Assembly (NCBI GenBank): GCA_964573185.1
Contig: CAZNIQ010000015.1
Coordinates: 1 to 7,149, forward strand
Length of the DNA: 7,149 nt
From: Candidatus Woesearchaeota archaeon
Lineage (GTDB): Archaea; Nanobdellota; Nanobdellia; Nanobdellales; CAZNIQ01
Reading direction: 5' to 3'
Shown here piece by piece: positions 190-6,942 of this stretch. The first letter of the stretch is position 1; every line of letters starts with the position of its first letter. The translations under genes were made by a program, and so were the position numbers. The notes under the pieces are model-generated. The model saw only the letters and a list, made by a program, of their open reading frames with translations. It did no database searches and was not told where the DNA came from.

Positions 190-212
190 AAGATATCGTT
201 AAGGAAAAGCTT

Positions 213-264
213 TTTCAGTCCATCGAGGGTTCATCATTTTCAGTCCCGTGGAGAATCATCATTT
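213..264 (-). ncRNA. Archaeal box C/D sRNA (2'-O-methylation guide RNA) with two 12-nt guides
   Basis: The minus strand reads AAAA-AUGAUGA(C, 256-262)-UUCUCCACGGGA(12 nt, 244-255)-CUGA(D', 240-243)-AA-AUGAUGA(C', 231-237)-ACCCUCGAUGGA(12 nt, 219-230)-CUGA(D, 215-218)-AAAAGCUUUU. All four boxes match consensus exactly (RUGAUGA / CUGA). Both spacers are exactly 12 nt, with a short D'-C' linker, and the core is 48 nt. On the plus strand it appears as a 25-bp tandem repeat with conserved ends and a divergent middle. RNA ends are approximate. Confidence 0.85.
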
Positions 265-271
265 TTATAAA
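264..271 (+). promoter_or_regulatory. TATA box (TTTATAAA) for metG; probably a leaderless transcript
   Basis: The consensus archaeal TATA octamer starts 29 nt upstream of the metG ATG at 293. ndk and infB have the same spacing. No Shine-Dalgarno-like sequence lies in between. Confidence 0.6.
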
Positions 272-292
272 AGAAGCATCAGAAGAAATTAA

Positions 293-1747
293 ATGTTCTA
301 TGTGACAACACCAATCTATTACCCCAATGACAAACCACATATAGGTTCTTTATTTACTACTGTTCTTGCAGATTTTCTTAAAAGAACTGCAGAGATTTTT
401 GGAGATGAAACTTTTCTTTTAACAGGATTAGATGAGCATGGATATAAATTATATAAAACTGCAAGGGAGAATGGAAAAGAACCCTTGGAATTCTTGGATG
501 AAATGCAGAAATACTTTAGAGAAGCTTGGGAAAAATATTGGATAGCTTATAACAGGTTTATTCGTACTACTGATAAAGATCATGAGGAAGTAGTAAAATA
601 TGTAATGGAAAGACTTTATGAAAAGGGCTATATTTATCAGGGAAAATATGAGGGTTATTATTGTTATAGATGTGAAGCATTTTATCCTACTTCCCGATTA
701 ATATATAAAGATGGAAAGTATTATTGTCCAGTTCACTTAAAAGAAGTCGAATGGATGTCTGAAGATACTTATTATTTAAAATTAACTGAATTTAAGGATT
801 GGATAAAGAATTTAATTGAAAATAAAGATTTTATAATTCCAAGAGGATATAAAAACGAAGTTTTAGGGTATATAAATGAGTTAGAGGATTTATCTATTGC
901 AAGACCAAAAGAAAGAGTTCCATGGGGAATAGAATTACCTTTTGACAAAAATTATACTGTTTATGTCTGGATAGACGCATTGCTAAACTATTTATCCGGA
1001 ATAGGTTATCCTAATGAAATTTACAAAAAGTATTGGCCAGCTGTACACGTCATAGGTAAGGATATATTAAAATTCCACGCCGTCATTTGGCCTATAGTTC
1101 TAAAGATGATTGATGTTGAGCCACCGAAGAAAATACTTGTCCATGGCTTCTGGACAGTTAAAGGATTAAAGATGTCTAAGAGCTTAAAAAACGTAATTTA
1201 CGTTGAGGAAATATATGATAAAGTTATACCTGTAAGATACTTCTTATTAAGAAATGCTGCTATAGAAAAAGACTCCGATTTCTCTTGGGAAGAAGTTTAT
1301 GCTTTCTATAATAACGAGCTTGCAGATATAATTGGAAATGCTTTTAAGAGAGTAACATCTTTAGGATTAAAAATAAATAATGGAATTATAAGAGGATTAA
1401 TTGATCCTGAAGTTTTAGATGAATTGAACAAGTATATAAAAGAAGGAAAATCTTTGTTTGAAGATTTCAAAGTTCCACAATATGTTATAGGAGTTGTAAA
1501 GGTATTTAAGTTCCTAAATGAATATTTCCAAGAGAAAGAACCATGGAAAACAAAAGATGAAAAAGTACTTTATAATTCATTATTTATAGCTAAAATAGGA
1601 TTAACATTATTATATCCCATCTTACCAGAAGTCTCTAAGAAAGCTTTAGATGTAATAGGAATTAAGTTGAAACCATTAGAACAGCAGTTCTTGCAGGAAA
1701 CATTTTATATCAAAGAAAGTCCAATATTGTTTCCAAAAATCAAATGA
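293..1747 (+). CDS. metG: Methionyl-tRNA synthetase, short core-only form (484 aa)
   Basis: Class I aaRS signatures are present: N-terminal FYVTTPIYYPNDKPHIGS (HIGH-type motif, here H-I-G-S) and KMSKS (GLKMSKSLKN). MetRS-specific blocks are also present: YVWIDALLNY, GKDILKFHAVIWP, a single CP1 zinc knuckle CYRC...CPVH (3 Cys + His), and the anticodon-domain N..F..KEPWK motif. The protein is collinear with my recollection of the Thermus thermophilus MetRS core and ends at PILFPKIK, where that core ends. Confidence 0.95.
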   Translation: MFYVTTPIYYPNDKPHIGSLFTTVLADFLKRTAEIFGDETFLLTGLDEHGYKLYKTARENGKEPLEFLDEMQKYFREAWEKYWIAYNRFIRTTDKDHEEVVKYVMERLYEKGYIYQGKYEGYYCYRCEAFYPTSRLIYKDGKYYCPVHLKEVEWMSEDTYYLKLTEFKDWIKNLIENKDFIIPRGYKNEVLGYINELEDLSIARPKERVPWGIELPFDKNYTVYVWIDALLNYLSGIGYPNEIYKKYWPAVHVIGKDILKFHAVIWPIVLKMIDVEPPKKILVHGFWTVKGLKMSKSLKNVIYVEEIYDKVIPVRYFLLRNAAIEKDSDFSWEEVYAFYNNELADIIGNAFKRVTSLGLKINNGIIRGLIDPEVLDELNKYIKEGKSLFEDFKVPQYVIGVVKVFKFLNEYFQEKEPWKTKDEKVLYNSLFIAKIGLTLLYPILPEVSKKALDVIGIKLKPLEQQFLQETFYIKESPILFPKIK

Positions 1748-2289
1748 AGTGGACTCTAAAGCTCCTTTTATTAAATATTTTTGTATTTTTTCTTGAAACT
1801 TTATTTCCGAATTTAATATATTTCTTAGGATTCGTACCGGCGTTGTTTCCTTATGAACCTTGGAGGATCGTTACTTCACTTTTTGTTCACGCGAACTTCA
1901 CGCACCTTTTCTACAACATGTTAGCCCTGTTCTTTTTTGGACTACATTTTGAAAGTAAATATGGAAGCAAGAATTTTCTAACAGTTTATTTTCTTTCAGG
2001 TATTTTAGGAAATCTTGCTTATTTCATTTTAGATCCTAGCAGTACTATAATTGGAGTTGGAGCTTCCGGAGCAATATATGGTATAATTGGTGCCTTAGCA
2101 ATCTTAGAACCTTTTACAATTGTTTATATTAATTTAATTCCTGTGCCACTAATTGTTGTAGCGTTCTTTTGGTTATTACTTAACTTCTTAGGAATATTTT
2201 ATCCATTTTCAAATGTAGGTTATCTAGCACATCTCATAGGTTTAATAGTTGGCTTTATTTACGGTTTATTTTTAAAGAAATTTTCTTAA
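1744..2289 (+). CDS. Rhomboid-family intramembrane serine protease (6 TM, 181 aa)
   Basis: Contains EPWRIVTSLFVHANFTHLFYNMLALFFFG (rhomboid WR...H...H..NM motif). Also contains GVGASGAIYGIIGA (GxSG catalytic Ser) and AHLIGLIVG (catalytic His in TM6). Six hydrophobic segments. The start ATG overlaps the metG TGA (ATGA at 1744-1747). Confidence 0.9.
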   Translation: MKWTLKLLLLNIFVFFLETLFPNLIYFLGFVPALFPYEPWRIVTSLFVHANFTHLFYNMLALFFFGLHFESKYGSKNFLTVYFLSGILGNLAYFILDPSSTIIGVGASGAIYGIIGALAILEPFTIVYINLIPVPLIVVAFFWLLLNFLGIFYPFSNVGYLAHLIGLIVGFIYGLFLKKFS

Positions 2290-2904
2290 CCATCCTTTAA
2301 ATTTATCTTCTGTACTCCAATAATCTTTATAATAATTCATTTTATCCAAAATCCAATTTAAAGTCATTATAACTTGAGAAGAAAAATAAGGTATATCTCC
2401 TAAAGAAATAAAAGTCGAAAACTCTTTTAACCATCTTTTCTCCTTTTTAGGAATACCTAGAAAGTCTCCAACAACAAAAACCGGATTTTCTATTTTTACA
2501 TTTTCAATAAATTCTCCTTCTGGATCTAAAACATAAATCTTTCTTCCGTGCTGTTTATATTCTTCTATTACTTCTCTAAAGCTTTTTCTTTCAACAAAAA
2601 CGCCCGGAAAAGCATATAGAGGCTCCCTCTTTTTGTTAAATTTTTTTAGAGCAGAAGAGAGAAGAGTTGCTATATCTTTTTTTGACCAAGGTGTTTCAGG
2701 ATTAGATTCTATTTTTATTCTTCTTGGAGGATCAGGAGGACCATTTAAAATTAAATCAAAAACAATATATTTCCTCAGACCATTCGAAATAAAAAAGGCA
2801 TGAATTATCGAGTGTACTACTATATCTATCCTACCGGAATAATATATATCCTTGAAGTTACCATCTGTTCTTACAGTGTTTGAATAAAAAACGAAAATTC
2901 TCAT
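2272..2904 (-). CDS. trmY: TrmY-like SPOUT methyltransferase (COG1901/DUF358 family; tRNA pseudouridine54 N1-methyltransferase)
   Basis: MRIFVFYSN...GRIDIVVHSIIHAFFISNGLRKYIVFDLILNGPPDPPRRIKIE...NPVFVVGDFLGIPKKEKRWL...ISLGDIPYFSSQVIMTLNWILD is collinear with the Methanocaldococcus MJ1640 TrmY pattern as I recall it. The track start at 2913 is a TTG. The ATG at 2902-2904 overlaps the infB TGA (ATGA), matches the family N-terminus (MR.F.F) and has GGGG 3 nt upstream, so I call 2904. Confidence 0.75.
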   Translation of the reverse strand: MRIFVFYSNTVRTDGNFKDIYYSGRIDIVVHSIIHAFFISNGLRKYIVFDLILNGPPDPPRRIKIESNPETPWSKKDIATLLSSALKKFNKKREPLYAFPGVFVERKSFREVIEEYKQHGRKIYVLDPEGEFIENVKIENPVFVVGDFLGIPKKEKRWLKEFSTFISLGDIPYFSSQVIMTLNWILDKMNYYKDYWSTEDKFKGWLRKFL

Positions 2905-5900
2905 ATACCCCAAGTTGGATTGAGTCTTCTCATTATTTTAGCTATTTCTTTTAATACTTCTTTTTCGTCCTCAGTTAATAAATGCTTCAATTCCTTATAT
3001 TTCTTGAAATGGGCTTCCGGGACATAAGTATATAAAACATCACCCTCATCTATATGTCTTCCAACAATAGGTCCTTGAATAGCAACTGCAACTTTATCTC
3101 CTTTCTTAGCTTCTTTCAAAGGCTTTCCTTCTGATTGGATGGATACTACTGTTCCAACTACTGTTCCATCTTCTCTCATAACAGATACTCCTGGTCTTAA
3201 AACACCACCTAGAATTTCTACACCAACTATTGCAGGATTAGATCTTCTGAAGATAAAACCATGCAATATTCTAAATTTACATGGAGGCACCAATTCTTCT
3301 AATATCTTTCTTCTTTTCAATTCTTCTACTTCTTTTAACCACTTATCAAATTTCTCTAGCAATCTGTAAATAACATTATCCTGTATTATCTTAATATCAT
3401 ATTTCTTTAGTTCTTCTTCTGCAGATTTATCAATACCTACATTAAAAGCTAAAATTACCCCCCATTTTTCATCTTTCTCTTTAGTTGCATAAGCTAACAG
3501 AATGTCTTTCTTAGTTACTGGCCCTATATCAGCTTTCCTTATAGGAATCCCTTTATCTTTTAGCAATTTTACTAAAGCTTCCAAAGTACCCAAAGTATCT
3601 GCTTTTACAACAATACCTATTTTATCTTCTTCAAATATAAAAGCTTGGATCTCTTTTTCTATCTCTTCCTTTATCTTTTTAATTTCCTTCTCATCCCAAA
3701 TAGCATATACTGGGGAACCTGCTAAAGCTTCTTCTAAACCGGGTGCTGCGATTCTTATACCAGCTGCAGCAACAACTTCCTCTACCTCCTTGAATTTTGC
3801 AGATTTATCTCTTATTTCCTTTAAAGGTAAAGGTTTTAGTAAAGCTCTAATTTTTGTAAATATGACACCTCTTCTACCAGCTAAAGCAATTAAATCTCCT
3901 TTTCTTAAAATACCATCATATAGTATTACATCAATTACATGTCCCAATCCCTTTACTTCTTTCTTTTCAAGAACAACCCCCTTTCCCGGACCTGAAACAT
4001 TTATCTTTAATCTTTTTTCTAGGAACTTTTGTGTAATTCCAGCAACTAATAGTAATAATTCAGGAATTCCTTCTCCTGTTTTTGCGGAAGTAGGAACAAC
4101 AGCTACTTGCCTTAAAAAATCGCTAACTCTATCAAATCTTTCAGCCTCAAAACCCAGTTCATATAAGGGACCGATAATATTTGAATATAAAAGTTCATCT
4201 AATCTCTGTTGAACATCAGGTCTTTGCTTCTTGATTGTTTCTAAAAATGGTTCATTTTCATGCGGAATCCAACCATCAATTCTATCTATTTTGTTTGCAG
4301 CAATTAAAAATGGAACTTTAAATTGTTTACAAATCTCTATAGATTCATAAGTTTGTGGCTTAAAACCTTCAAGTATATCTACAACTATAATAGCAAAATC
4401 TGCTACAGAACCACCTCTCCTTCTTAGATTAGTAAATGCTTCGTGTCCGGGAGTATCTATAAAAAGTAAACCCGGTATCTTAAATTCAAATTTGAAAACT
4501 TTTGTTAAGGGTCCTGCAATTTTTTTAATTACTTCTATTGGGATCTCTGTAGCACCTATATGTTGGGTTATTCCCCCAGCTTCCTTTTGGGCTATAGCTG
4601 TTCCACGTATTTTATCTAGAAGGGAAGTGTTATGAACTATAATTCCGTTAGCAATGAAAGTATAAGTTTCTGTTGAAAGATCATATACATATCCTTTGTA
4701 TGGTATTTTCTCTATTCTTTCAATTTCCACAAAAGCTATTTCTTCAAAGTTTGGAATGTGTATTTTTTCATAAAGTTTTTCTTTCCAAATTCTTAAGAAT
4801 TCTTTACCAAGTTCTGTAATATTTCCATTTTCGTCTAACAGCCCATCCCTTTGAAATGCTTTTATTAAATTATAATCCTTTACTTTTCCCTCTAGAACTG
4901 CTATTTTCTTTTCAATATTCTTAACTCTTAAGTTCTCGACAAATTTTCTCCAAATATATAAAGTAATTTTCTGCTTACTCTCTTCATATTTTTTATAGAA
5001 AGGTATTTTTATTTCACTCTTTGTTAAACCAAAAGATAACCTTAAGTACTTAAGATACTGTGGGGAAATAGGAATTATTATATTATCCTTCTTGGCTCGT
5101 TTAAGGATTTGCGCAAACGCTTCTTTCTTTGCTATTAAAAGTATATATTTTGAAAGGTTTTCTAAATTCCTTTTGCCGGAAATGATTAACCTAAAGTATT
5201 TTTCTTTTTGCTTTACTTTAGAAAACACGCCCAAAACTAATAGGAGGTATTTTAATCCATATATAAAGTCCTTTGAAGCAGAAAGTATTTCTATGCTGCA
5301 ATTTCTTGTATCTATATAGCCATCTCCATCAATTACACCTCCTATAAAAGCGCCTATAAATTCTTTAGGAGAATGCCACAGAATTTCAGGAATTCTCAAG
5401 TTACGTGCCTTTTTCTTTTCAGGATATTCGAATAAATATTTTAATAATTTAATAAAGCTTTGTTTAGCTCCTTTTATTTCAATTAATTGCACAGTTTTAC
5501 CATTTTTAACCTCAGTGTATAATTCTAATTCTTTTGAAAACTCTTCTACGAATTTCTGAATCCTTTTATTATTATTTGTAATAATATTATGATTCGCTAC
5601 TCCATCAGCATAAAATAAACCAACTAAGTAAAATAATTTTCTCCAAGTTTCAAAATCTTTAGGAAACTTTATATACCATTTAATATGTCCTGCTCTCTGC
5701 TTTCTAGTTGTAAATCCAAAACATTCTATAGAACGCCAAGCATAGTCTATTCCATAATCTTCTATCAGTATTTTTAAGTCCTCCCCTCTAAATCTGTTTA
5801 TATATGTTTTGTAACTTCTCGGAAGTTTTTCTACAGCATCTTCTGATAAAATAAAAATACTTTCCTCGTTTTCGATAAGTTTATTTAAAACGTATTTTTT

Positions 5901-6281
5901 GAAATCTTCAAAAGTTTTTTCAATAGGATATTTGATTATTACAGCAATTTTATCATTAATGTCTAAATCTTTAGCGTACTTCCATCCATTGGAAGTTAGT
6001 AAAGGATGCTCTGGAGTAACTCTAATAATAGTTCCATCTTTCAATTTTATTTTTATAAGATAACCGCTATGCTCCAACTTTACTTTTTGATAATTCTCCG
6101 TTTTCTTTATATTTTCTTTATAAACAAAAATCCTTTCTATAGTATTGTTTTCTACTAATTCTTTTATTTTCTTTGGACCATTCTCTGTAAAAACTAGCTC
6201 CTCTGGATGTAAGCACTTCCCATGATCTACATGCCCTAAAACAACGATAATAGGAGATCTAATTTTAGCATTAGAACTCAT
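2901..6281 (-). CDS. infB: Translation initiation factor aIF5B/IF2 precursor (1126 aa) containing a 529-aa intein; mature extein about 597 aa
   Basis: GTPase motifs are G1 GHVDHGK|T (split by the intein), G3 DTPGHEAF, G4 NKID and G5 SAKTGEG. GGITQHIGATEIP and the domain II-IV layout fit aIF5B. The N-terminus lies only about 10 aa before G1, which is the archaeal rather than the bacterial IF2 architecture. N-extein 6216-6281, C-extein 2901-4628. Confidence 0.95.
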   Translation of the reverse strand: MSSNAKIRSPIIVVLGHVDHGKCLHPEELVFTENGPKKIKELVENNTIERIFVYKENIKKTENYQKVKLEHSGYLIKIKLKDGTIIRVTPEHPLLTSNGWKYAKDLDINDKIAVIIKYPIEKTFEDFKKYVLNKLIENEESIFILSEDAVEKLPRSYKTYINRFRGEDLKILIEDYGIDYAWRSIECFGFTTRKQRAGHIKWYIKFPKDFETWRKLFYLVGLFYADGVANHNIITNNNKRIQKFVEEFSKELELYTEVKNGKTVQLIEIKGAKQSFIKLLKYLFEYPEKKKARNLRIPEILWHSPKEFIGAFIGGVIDGDGYIDTRNCSIEILSASKDFIYGLKYLLLVLGVFSKVKQKEKYFRLIISGKRNLENLSKYILLIAKKEAFAQILKRAKKDNIIIPISPQYLKYLRLSFGLTKSEIKIPFYKKYEESKQKITLYIWRKFVENLRVKNIEKKIAVLEGKVKDYNLIKAFQRDGLLDENGNITELGKEFLRIWKEKLYEKIHIPNFEEIAFVEIERIEKIPYKGYVYDLSTETYTFIANGIIVHNTSLLDKIRGTAIAQKEAGGITQHIGATEIPIEVIKKIAGPLTKVFKFEFKIPGLLFIDTPGHEAFTNLRRRGGSVADFAIIVVDILEGFKPQTYESIEICKQFKVPFLIAANKIDRIDGWIPHENEPFLETIKKQRPDVQQRLDELLYSNIIGPLYELGFEAERFDRVSDFLRQVAVVPTSAKTGEGIPELLLLVAGITQKFLEKRLKINVSGPGKGVVLEKKEVKGLGHVIDVILYDGILRKGDLIALAGRRGVIFTKIRALLKPLPLKEIRDKSAKFKEVEEVVAAAGIRIAAPGLEEALAGSPVYAIWDEKEIKKIKEEIEKEIQAFIFEEDKIGIVVKADTLGTLEALVKLLKDKGIPIRKADIGPVTKKDILLAYATKEKDEKWGVILAFNVGIDKSAEEELKKYDIKIIQDNVIYRLLEKFDKWLKEVEELKRRKILEELVPPCKFRILHGFIFRRSNPAIVGVEILGGVLRPGVSVMREDGTVVGTVVSIQSEGKPLKEAKKGDKVAVAIQGPIVGRHIDEGDVLYTYVPEAHFKKYKELKHLLTEDEKEVLKEIAKIMRRLNPTWGI
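4629..6215 (-). mobile_element. Intein (529 aa) in the aIF5B P-loop between GHVDHGK and TSLLD, with a LAGLIDADG homing endonuclease
   Basis: Cys1 codon TGC at 6213-6215 directly follows K22. Block B is RVTPEHPLL (TxxH). The C-terminal end is ...VYDLSTETYTFIANGIIVHN (His-Asn; Asn codon 4629-4631), followed by the +1 Thr codon (4626-4628). Removing it restores the canonical GHVDHGKTSLLD P-loop in frame. Confidence 0.9.
5319..5627 (-). other. LAGLIDADG homing-endonuclease core within the intein (span between the two catalytic motifs)
   Basis: Motif 1 is LVGLFYADG (5601-5627). Motif 2 is IGGVIDGDG (5319-5345). They lie about 94 aa apart, typical of a double-motif monomeric enzyme, and both retain the acidic catalytic Asp. 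Confidence 0.8.
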
Positions 6282-6330: not shown

Positions 6331-6921
6331 TTAATAAATAACCTCCTCCATGTCCCTTCTATATTCATAAATTTCCTCCGGCTTAAACAACAAAGATATT
6401 TCTCTTTTTGCAGATTTTTCTGAATCTGAAGCATGAACAACGTTTCTTATAGCCATTTTATTCCAATTAGCATAAGCATAAGACATATGAGCGAAATCTC
6501 CTCTTATGGTTCCGGGGGGAGCTTCCAAAGGTTCTGTAGGTCCTACTATTTTTCTTACAACCTTTACAGCATTTACCCCTTCAAGAACAATAGCTACAAC
6601 TGGACCAGAAGTTATATATTCAATTAACCACTCCCTTACCTTTTTACCGATTTCTATAGCATCCGTAGTTCCAAATTCTTTTAGAGGGTCTAAACCTACT
6701 TCTTGATATTTCTGTAACAACGTTGTTCCCACTTTTTCATACCATTTTTCATCGAATTTATAGAACTCTTCTGCTAACTCTCTAGTAAACCAAATCATTT
6801 TTAAACCTACGATCTTTAAACCAGCCCTTTCAAATCTTCTGATAATCTCACCGATTAAACCCCTCTTCACAGCGTCTGGCTTTATTAAAACAAGCGTTTT
6901 TTGAATTAAAGGATGCTTCAT
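6331..6921 (-). CDS. ndk: Nucleoside diphosphate kinase, long form with two insertions (196 aa from the ATG)
   Basis: Contains TLVLIKPDAVKRGLIGEIIRRFERAGLKIVGLKM, SGPVVAIVLEG, PGTIRGDF and NVVHASDS (catalytic His codon 6433-6435). The first track codon (6922-6924) is TTG. The ATG at 6919-6921 sits 29 nt from a TATA octamer, so I call 6921. Confidence 0.9.
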   Translation of the reverse strand: MKHPLIQKTLVLIKPDAVKRGLIGEIIRRFERAGLKIVGLKMIWFTRELAEEFYKFDEKWYEKVGTTLLQKYQEVGLDPLKEFGTTDAIEIGKKVREWLIEYITSGPVVAIVLEGVNAVKVVRKIVGPTEPLEAPPGTIRGDFAHMSYAYANWNKMAIRNVVHASDSEKSAKREISLLFKPEEIYEYRRDMEEVIY

Positions 6922-6942
6922 CAAATTTCCTTACAATTATTT

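Follow-up and report, generated by a model that had tools for sequence, protein, structure and literature searches.

The window, that is, the whole 7,149-nt stretch of DNA that we analyzed, opens with a putative ORF on the minus strand (1 to 189) that leaves the window and belongs to no Pfam family. Beyond an AT-rich spacer lie genes that Pfam recognizes: metG, encoding a 484-aa methionine-tRNA ligase (293-1747, plus strand; PF09334, E 4e-89), and a rhomboid protease gene (1744-2289, plus strand), followed on the minus strand by genes for a PF04013 RNA methyltransferase (2272-2913), for aIF5B with a LAGLIDADG intein (2901-6281) and for a nucleoside diphosphate kinase (6331-6924). A tRNA scan of the window found no tRNA genes, and genes for L7Ae, Nop5 and fibrillarin are likewise absent from it. 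The element under study lies in the spacer, which the original prediction described as separating metG from a small divergent ORF; Pfam bears out metG, while the ORF stays putative.

The protein encoded by metG occurs at 100 % identity only on short metagenomic contigs. Its next-nearest relatives are 66-70 % identical, the sole named one being from Candidatus Nanopusillus sp., and a comparison of the protein with a genome collection of species representatives found no close relative. Judging from these matches (metagenomic contigs only, and a nearest named metG from Ca. Nanopusillus), the source is an uncultivated, Nanopusillus-like nanoarchaeote. The archaeal origin that had been deduced from the element itself is thus borne out by the neighboring genes: aIF5B carries an intein, and the other close named metG matches are archaeal too.

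On the minus strand, positions 262 to 215 read directly as the full C/D pattern: AUGAUGA, 12 nt, CUGA, AA, AUGAUGA, 12 nt, CUGA. With its flanks, the element is AAAA-AUGAUGA-UUCUCCACGGGA-CUGA-AA-AUGAUGA-ACCCUCGAUGGA-CUGA-AAAAA. Box C (256..262, minus strand) is AUGAUGA, in agreement with the RUGAUGA consensus, and is followed by the 12-nt D' guide UUCUCCACGGGA (244..255), in which the N+5 nucleotide is C248 and would pair with a target G. Box D' (CUGA, 240..243) is separated by a two-nucleotide AA linker, the predicted K-loop (238..239), from box C' (AUGAUGA, 231..237), and the second guide, the 12-nt D guide ACCCUCGAUGGA (219..230; N+5 = A223, predicted to face a U in the target), leads into box D (CUGA, 215..218). 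The terminal pair therefore has the RUGAUGA box C and CUGA box D expected of a kink-turn with tandem sheared G-A pairs, and both internal boxes are perfect as well. Guide spacers in archaeal box C/D sRNAs measure 10-12 nt (PMC7994747), and both of ours are exactly 12 nt. Direct reading and a pattern search agreed on the four perfect boxes and the two 12-nt guides, just as originally claimed; the extent first given, 205-266, contains a real element whose functional core is narrower, 215-262.

We then asked how often such a pattern arises by chance. The composite ATGATGA-N12-CTGA-N1-12-RTGATGA-N12-CTGA has a single match in the window and was found in none of 200 dinucleotide-preserving shuffles, and the half-unit RTGATGA-N12-CTGA has two matches in the window, both inside the element, against a shuffle mean of 0.01. 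Seen from the plus strand, the same DNA is a 25-bp tandem repeat (212-236 and 237-261) with 18 of 25 positions identical; on recomputation, this identity held and a period of 25 was the best register. The box positions of the two units are conserved, and divergence falls exactly on the guide positions. The GC-enriched patch that had been noticed in the AT-rich spacer is real too: GC content is 46 % in the element, 24 % in the remaining spacer and 31 % in the window. Each guide reaches 58 %, a high value for a 31 % GC genome that is expected if the guides pair with rRNA, since the rRNA of relatives is also GC-rich (~66 %). The element RNA has no stable self-structure (z -0.2), and the sRNAs of Nanoarchaeum equitans likewise lack stable self-structure and have unpaired termini (PMC3491384). 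A reading on the opposite strand was discarded: the plus strand has no boxes, and its reverse-complement 12-mers, used as control guides, gave rRNA runs of only 8 nt.

In an Rfam scan of the window, no family reached its gathering score at the element. Under permissive settings, nearly all of the best sub-threshold matches were to archaeal C/D families, in full-length alignments to the minus strand, led by snoPyro_CD (RF00095; 27.2 bits, E 7e-4, against a gathering score of 45 bits) and sR5 (RF01304; 25.8 bits, E 3e-4, against 40 bits), with sR7, sR42, sR28 and others ranked below them. All four boxes were matched in the snoPyro_CD and sR5 alignments, yet the guides of these families (from Pyrococcus and other archaea) are unrelated to ours, and the snoPyro_CD alignment needs a 2-nt linker deletion; the element is not a member of either family. 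Since Rfam delimits its archaeal C/D families by guide sequence, a shortfall of this kind was to be expected. We also used a sequence-only model built from the alignment of 24 of the 26 RNA-seq-verified sRNAs of N. equitans (PMC3491384, supplementary file 2). With filters off, it matched 215-266 on the minus strand at 18.7 bits (E 8.8e-6), while the runner-up in the window scored 3.3 bits. The proposed model scan thus gave a clear match with a model from the clade, which picks out the element alone, and only sub-threshold matches with Rfam. Our box C aligned to box C of snoPyro_CD, of sR5 and of the N. equitans model. Applied to a relative, this last model also matched a C/D-like element distinct from ours between genes (L004 7115-7165, the same as L005 5284-5334).

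Boxes and guides are identical in three independent assemblies from the same population: the window, a Logan contig (L002) and a JGI contig (L003). Over 2,077 nt, the JGI contig and the window share 99.9 % identity, and within the element the only difference is one extra A in the D'-C' linker, which is AAA there and AA in the window and the Logan contig. In N. equitans, linkers are 3 nt long in 23 of 25 sRNAs and 4 nt in the other two; none has 2 nt. The linker had been described as short, and it is, but at 2 nt it lies below every one of these 25. The N. equitans model is sensitive to this difference and gave 26.6 bits to the 3-nt allele, as opposed to 18.7 to the 2-nt allele. One could thus see in the window a decaying or non-functional copy, in which the loss of one base from the linker blocks the K-loop or the spacing of the half-complexes. 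We consider this very unlikely, since the four boxes and both guides are intact in all three assemblies, and decay in a 31 % GC genome should already have cost box or guide bases. Moreover, one A of a homopolymer run is all that separates the alleles of two contigs 99.9 % alike, a difference that could stem from sequencing, from assembly or from a minor allele. The 2-nt linker is thus atypical, and it may reflect an error in the homopolymer, represent a minor allele or betray a slightly defective copy. If real and functional, a K-loop linker of 2 nt would fall below the whole range of N. equitans.

Beyond the population, conservation was not found where it had been anticipated, in syntenic spacers. 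Upstream of metG, none of the relatives with 66-70 % identical metG has a C/D element adjoining the gene, and in the same relatives the gene order around metG differs. This is weak counter-evidence, because C/D sRNA genes are known to shift genomic context (PMC3491384, PMC7994747). A tRNA-Gln(UUG) gene occupies this upstream spacer in the two Ca. Nanopusillus contigs, as would fit a proposed swapping of positions between C/D sRNA genes and tRNA genes during nanoarchaeal genome rearrangements. Scans of viral contigs for diverged copies of either guide unit found none, and no diverged homologue showing guide covariation turned up within the clade. Since the evidence is of sequence only and includes no diverged homologue, the element could in principle owe its two units to a tandem duplication that arose by chance in the AT-rich spacer and has no RNA function. 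The probability of this is practically negligible: the pattern was absent from all of the shuffles, the match to an independent clade model has an E of about 1e-5, the repeat keeps its box positions and diverges in its guide positions, and its complementarity to rRNA, described below, is non-random. All the defining sequence features, the match to the clade model and plausible rRNA targets with a Watson-Crick N+5 pair agree with the original reading, and we conclude that positions 215-262 of the minus strand very likely represent a canonical archaeal dual-guide box C/D sRNA gene, with a predicted RNA of ~52-60 nt including short flanks.

The surroundings of the element offer some hints about its expression. 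On the minus strand, a candidate archaeal box A, TTTAAT (288..293), overlaps the metG start codon; its first T is 26 nt upstream of position 267, implying a start 4-6 nt before box C, and N. equitans has a box A TTTAAA at -26 (PMC3491384). The candidate is weak, and with TTTAWW occurring ~8 times per kb per strand it is near chance level. We therefore dropped the promoter as an argument, such hexamers being too common in the genome to count. At the other end, 8 nt downstream of box D, the T-rich stretch UUUUCCUU (200..207, minus strand) may be an archaeal oligo-T terminator, a reading to which we likewise give little weight. On the plus strand, TTTATAAA (264..271), centered ~26 nt upstream of the ATG at 293, is the likely TATA box of metG, and this spacing suggests that the metG mRNA is leaderless. 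The predicted TATA box starts 2 nt from box C of the sRNA. The control regions of the sRNA and of metG would thus overlap back to back.

The sRNA may then be expressed from its own weak box-A-like promoter or be processed from a longer transcript that runs into the downstream ORF. A stronger version of the second route, in which the sRNA has neither promoter nor terminator of its own and is cut from the 5' leader of the ORF mRNA, with its box C beside the TATA box of the divergent metG, so that co-transcriptional sRNP assembly would couple the capacity for rRNA modification to the expression of the flanking genes, seems to us distinctly unlikely. The ATG at 189 follows box D at a distance of only 26 nt, with no room for a separate promoter in between, and this proximity also raises the question of whether the element works in cis, as an L7Ae-binding kink-turn in the leader of the ORF, or else as a regulatory feature of the shared divergent promoter region. 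Control of archaeal translation by L7Ae binding to mRNA kink-turns is indeed proposed (PMC5539422). Nonetheless, a regulatory kink-turn needs one C/D pair, while here there are two units with exact 12-nt spacers, GC-rich guides and complementarity to rRNA at known methylation sites, and the ORF to be regulated is itself putative and has no recognizable family. Processing of sRNAs from mRNA leaders is moreover a known maturation route (PMC3491384, PMC7994747), so that co-transcription is compatible with an sRNA. A purely cis-acting or promoter role is, in our view, extremely unlikely, and we keep to the guide RNA reading in what follows.

To find what the guides may modify, we scored targets in an unbiased scan of the rRNA of relatives and counted only contiguous Watson-Crick runs that cover N+5. 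A 22-mer, reconstructed from PLEXY target strings in the literature, brought up the 23S of N. equitans, and the translation of a spurious ORF lying antisense within this 23S then served as a protein bait for other nanoarchaeal 23S sequences. The resulting set comprises a complete sequence (L010) 84 % identical to N. equitans, a partial one (L011) at 91 % and a more distant one (L012). The remaining 46 matches of the antisense-ORF bait included none close to the nanoarchaeal 23S sequences, and a 2,691-aa concatenated bait made of all stop-free frames around the target region brought in no further sequences.

A perfect target of the D' guide would be 5'-UCCCGUGGAGAA-3' and that of the D guide 5'-UCCAUCGAGGGU-3', with the methylated G and U, respectively, at position 5. 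The best match of the D guide, CCAUCGAGGG, makes 10 contiguous Watson-Crick pairs at 922-931 of the L010 23S, a result equaled by 57 of 5000 shuffled guides. For the D' guide, the best match is CCCGUGGAG(G), with 9 Watson-Crick pairs and one G-U pair at L010 856-865 (equaled by 340 of 5000), and its target motif is present in all three nanoarchaeal 23S (L010 856, N. equitans 844, L011 124). Taken singly, the guides are only modestly significant (p about 0.07 for D' and 0.01 for D), and position 1 of the guide, as well as position 12, is mismatched at both sites in the rRNA of relatives. Both runs include N+5, so that guide complementarity of at least 9 bp with a Watson-Crick N+5 pair, 9 bp being the published criterion for sRNA target prediction (PMC4644070), was found, in the 23S of relatives only. 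The sensitivity of the approach is low: as a calibration, the sRNA found in a relative (L004) reached just 8-nt runs on the same 23S set.

The D and D' sites lie 66 nt apart in domain II of the L010 23S, with homologous sites in N. equitans and L011, and only 5 of 20,000 shuffled guide pairs placed both runs, each 9 nt or longer, no more than 150 nt apart on this 23S, in a test devised after the data had been seen. Targets no more than 100 nt apart in one rRNA define a double guide (PMC4644070), a class to which 262 of 489 sRNAs belong in that study, and on the rRNA of a relative our element falls within it. The N+5 nucleotides align to C723 of the E. coli 23S, which is a G in all three nanoarchaea, and to U790, which is a U in all five sequences. 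On this sequence evidence, the sRNA probably guides Gm and Um formation at the 23S equivalents of E. coli 723 and 790, an assignment inferred from the rRNA of relatives.

Other candidate sites were set aside along the way. A D target near 23S position 357 was dropped on account of an internal mismatch in the match. A D' target in the GACCCCGUGGAGCUU region near E. coli 2067 found no support, since in none of the nanoarchaeal 23S did this sequence rank with the best matches. A metagenome scan with CCATCGAGGGTGANAGCCCCGT, in which the predicted D target had been fused to a wrong conserved flank, returned only a eukaryotic LSU rRNA fragment.

We also considered that the sRNA might be genuine and have at least one target outside this pair of domain II sites, be it in 16S near E. 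coli 1310 (motif AUCGAGGG) or in a tRNA, or that one of its guides might be an orphan. The 16S of N. equitans and of four other archaea contains GAUCGAGGG, which makes 8 contiguous Watson-Crick pairs with the D guide and covers N+5 (at this site, the N. equitans 16S reads GUCCAGAUCGAGGG). In addition, sR500 of Ignicoccus hospitalis and sR112 of Sulfolobus acidocaldarius bear CCUCGAUC-type guides that would pair with the 16S GAUCGAGGG, and predicted methylation marks of other archaea are found at the end of the same 16S alignment block. The 23S match of the D guide is nevertheless the longer one (10 pairs, as opposed to 8), its site is the one lying 66 nt from the D' site, with the shuffled guide pairs so rarely doing as well, and its register on 23S is that of a known D guide, sR73 of Methanopyrus kandleri (see below). 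As for the D' guide, the alternative site UCCCGUGGA at position 2139 of the N. equitans 23S (E. coli about 2027) also offers 9 Watson-Crick pairs, but we rejected it as the primary site because the sequence of this helix is wholly different in L010. Within 16S, CGUGGAG is absent from the seven archaeal sequences of the alignment of Dennis et al. A target outside the domain II pair thus seems unlikely, though by no means far-fetched, and we retain the two domain II sites as the probable ones.

Published methylation maps bring these two sites into a familiar context. By column counting in the 23S alignment of Dennis et al. 2015 (PMC4644070), the predicted N+5 nucleotides are alignment positions 947 and 1017. 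In the same study, methyl modifications are denser in helices 32-35a, and domain II has a conserved hotspot of methylation in its helices 35/35a. G947 is a predicted target there, which the I131 label and the guide sequence attribute to sR131 of I. hospitalis, and the adjoining C946 is a predicted target of M. kandleri sR42. U1017 has three entries in the target table: one under M. kandleri sR73, one under an sR9 that its P9 label suggests to be from Pyrobaculum calidifontis, and one more. The sRNAs with these predicted targets are verified ones and come from Ignicoccus, Methanopyrus and at least one additional species.

Of these RNAs, sR73 resembles our element at the D guide. Its D guide with box D, CGCCUCGAUUGG/CCGA, has positions 4-10 from box D in common with ACCCUCGAUGGA/CUGA, and in both guides N+5 falls on one and the same universally conserved U (alignment position 1017, U790 of E. 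coli). The differences between the flanking guide bases match those between the rRNAs, which read CCAAUCGAGGC in M. kandleri and CCCAUCGAGGG in L010: for example, guide position 3 is a U in M. kandleri, pairing within CCAAUCG, and a G in the window, pairing within the CCCAUCG of L010. However, sR73 belongs to another phylum, and its second guide targets G1051 instead of G947. The likeness of the two D guides may reflect common descent or convergence. A similar correspondence holds for the other guide. The D' guide of I. hospitalis sR131 (..ACCACCGGG/CAGA) has its N+5 on G947 in CC(C/G)GUGGAGG, that is, on the same nucleotide and in the same D' slot as ours, yet the two guide sequences differ outside CCAC. 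The second listed target of sR131 is apparently 23S G26 (the reading of the table is uncertain here), and the partner target of sR42 is G996. That our guides share the registers of sR131 on G947 and of sR73 on U1017 lends independent support to the target assignment.

Within the same phylum, 26 box C/D sRNAs were verified by RNA-seq in N. equitans (Randau 2012, PMC3491384), which encodes fibrillarin (NEQ125) and Nop56 (NEQ342) (PMC3491384). Our element resembles them in its guides of about 12 nt (12 nt is the modal value in N. equitans), in its short A/U-rich linker, which is nonetheless 2 nt long where theirs have 3-4, and in its unpaired termini. Its setting is similar as well, N. equitans sRNA genes often abutting or overlapping protein genes. 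It differs in its guides: none of the 26 has this guide pair, and none has a predicted target at either of the proposed positions. The D guide of N. equitans sRNA1 (..ACCACGGGCA) resembles our D' guide only over CCACGGG.

If the element acts as proposed, its assembly would follow the steps established for archaeal C/D sRNPs. Boxes C and D would form a kink-turn and boxes D' and C' a K-loop; L7Ae would bind each of these motifs, and Nop5 and fibrillarin, in two copies apiece, would then assemble on the RNA. Once the 12-nt guides had paired with rRNA, fibrillarin would 2'-O-methylate the nucleotide facing the fifth guide position upstream of D' or D. In this way, Gm would be formed under the D' guide at G947 of the alignment, the 23S equivalent of E. 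coli C723, and Um under the D guide at U1017, the equivalent of E. coli U790. As a double guide, the sRNA could also hold the two domain II segments together during rRNA folding.

Box C/D sRNAs, double guides and the domain II hotspot are already established, and such RNAs are documented in the phylum; the element changes no concept. What it adds is one well-formed, previously unlisted guide RNA in a lineage with next to no small-RNA annotation, the uncultivated Nanopusillus-like nanoarchaea. Its guides further suggest that two sites in 23S domain II, predicted to be methylated in Crenarchaeota and Methanopyrus, may be guided in Nanoarchaeota as well. The sRNA that would guide them is apparently missing from N. 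equitans, and this would be a small data point in favor of guide repertoires that turn over while the modification sites persist.

The linker between boxes D' and C' of the metG-upstream sRNA (238-239 in the window) reads AA both in the window and in L002, a Logan assembly of the same population, and AAA in L003, a JGI assembly of it, in which the extra base is placed at the site matching window 236/237. Because these contigs are 99.9 % identical, the difference reflects either micro-variation within the population or an assembly error in a homopolymer.

A relative carries another, distinct candidate box C/D sRNA, at 7115-7165 of contig L004 and, correspondingly, 5284-5334 of L005 (minus strand in both), at the 5' edge of the archease gene. 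Its layout is AUGAUGA-AGCCCCAGCAC-CAGA-GAA-AUGAAGA-UAAAACUGCCUU-CUGA, and it scores 19.3 bits with the model built from the verified Nanoarchaeum equitans C/D sRNAs; against the available 23S sequences the longest runs of its guides reach only 8 nt.

Some 'hypothetical proteins' in public protein collections (P0121-P0169) are spurious ORFs antisense within archaeal 23S rRNA genes, as at 3313-4266 (minus strand) of L008, and can be used as bait to recover rRNA-bearing contigs. A fragment of eukaryotic LSU rRNA in a JGI metagenome (L009, 209-230, plus strand) carries GCCAUCGAGGGUGAAAGCCCCGU, and thus matches 11 nt of the predicted target of the D guide at a site in LSU rRNA unrelated to it, a reminder that chance recurrence of 11-mers is expected in very large collections.

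Genes in the window are very tightly packed: computed from mechanical ORF starts, the overlap is 4 nt between metG and the rhomboid gene (1744-1747), 18 nt between the convergent rhomboid and methyltransferase ORFs (2272-2289), and 13 nt between the methyltransferase and aIF5B ORFs (2901-2913). The aIF5B gene (infB; 2901-6281, minus strand) is split by an intein that contains a homing-endonuclease domain of the LAGLIDADG type; the Pfam matches to Intein_splicing, LAGLIDADG_3 and Hom_end cover residues ~30-551. The nucleoside diphosphate kinase ORF (6331-6924, minus strand; Pfam NDK) has 197 aa for a profile of 135 positions, which it matches in two stretches, the best pairing residues 94-185 with positions 54-135, a pattern suggestive of an insertion or of extra sequence at the N terminus.

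The metG gene itself (293-1747, plus strand) is of the short form, its 484 aa giving no match to the PF01588 tRNA-binding domain. L004, whose metG is 66 % identical, has a separate, stand-alone PF01588 tRNA_bind ORF of 106 aa (5951-6271, plus strand), located ~1.3 kb downstream of its metG. Two further contigs, L014 from Ca. Nanopusillus and the very similar L015 (metG 70 % and 68 % identical to the window's, respectively), have a tRNA-Gln(UUG) gene directly upstream of metG (2150-2224 and 99-173, both plus strand), whereas in the window this spacer holds the C/D sRNA. Across related genomes, therefore, the same position is taken by either a tRNA gene or an sRNA gene.
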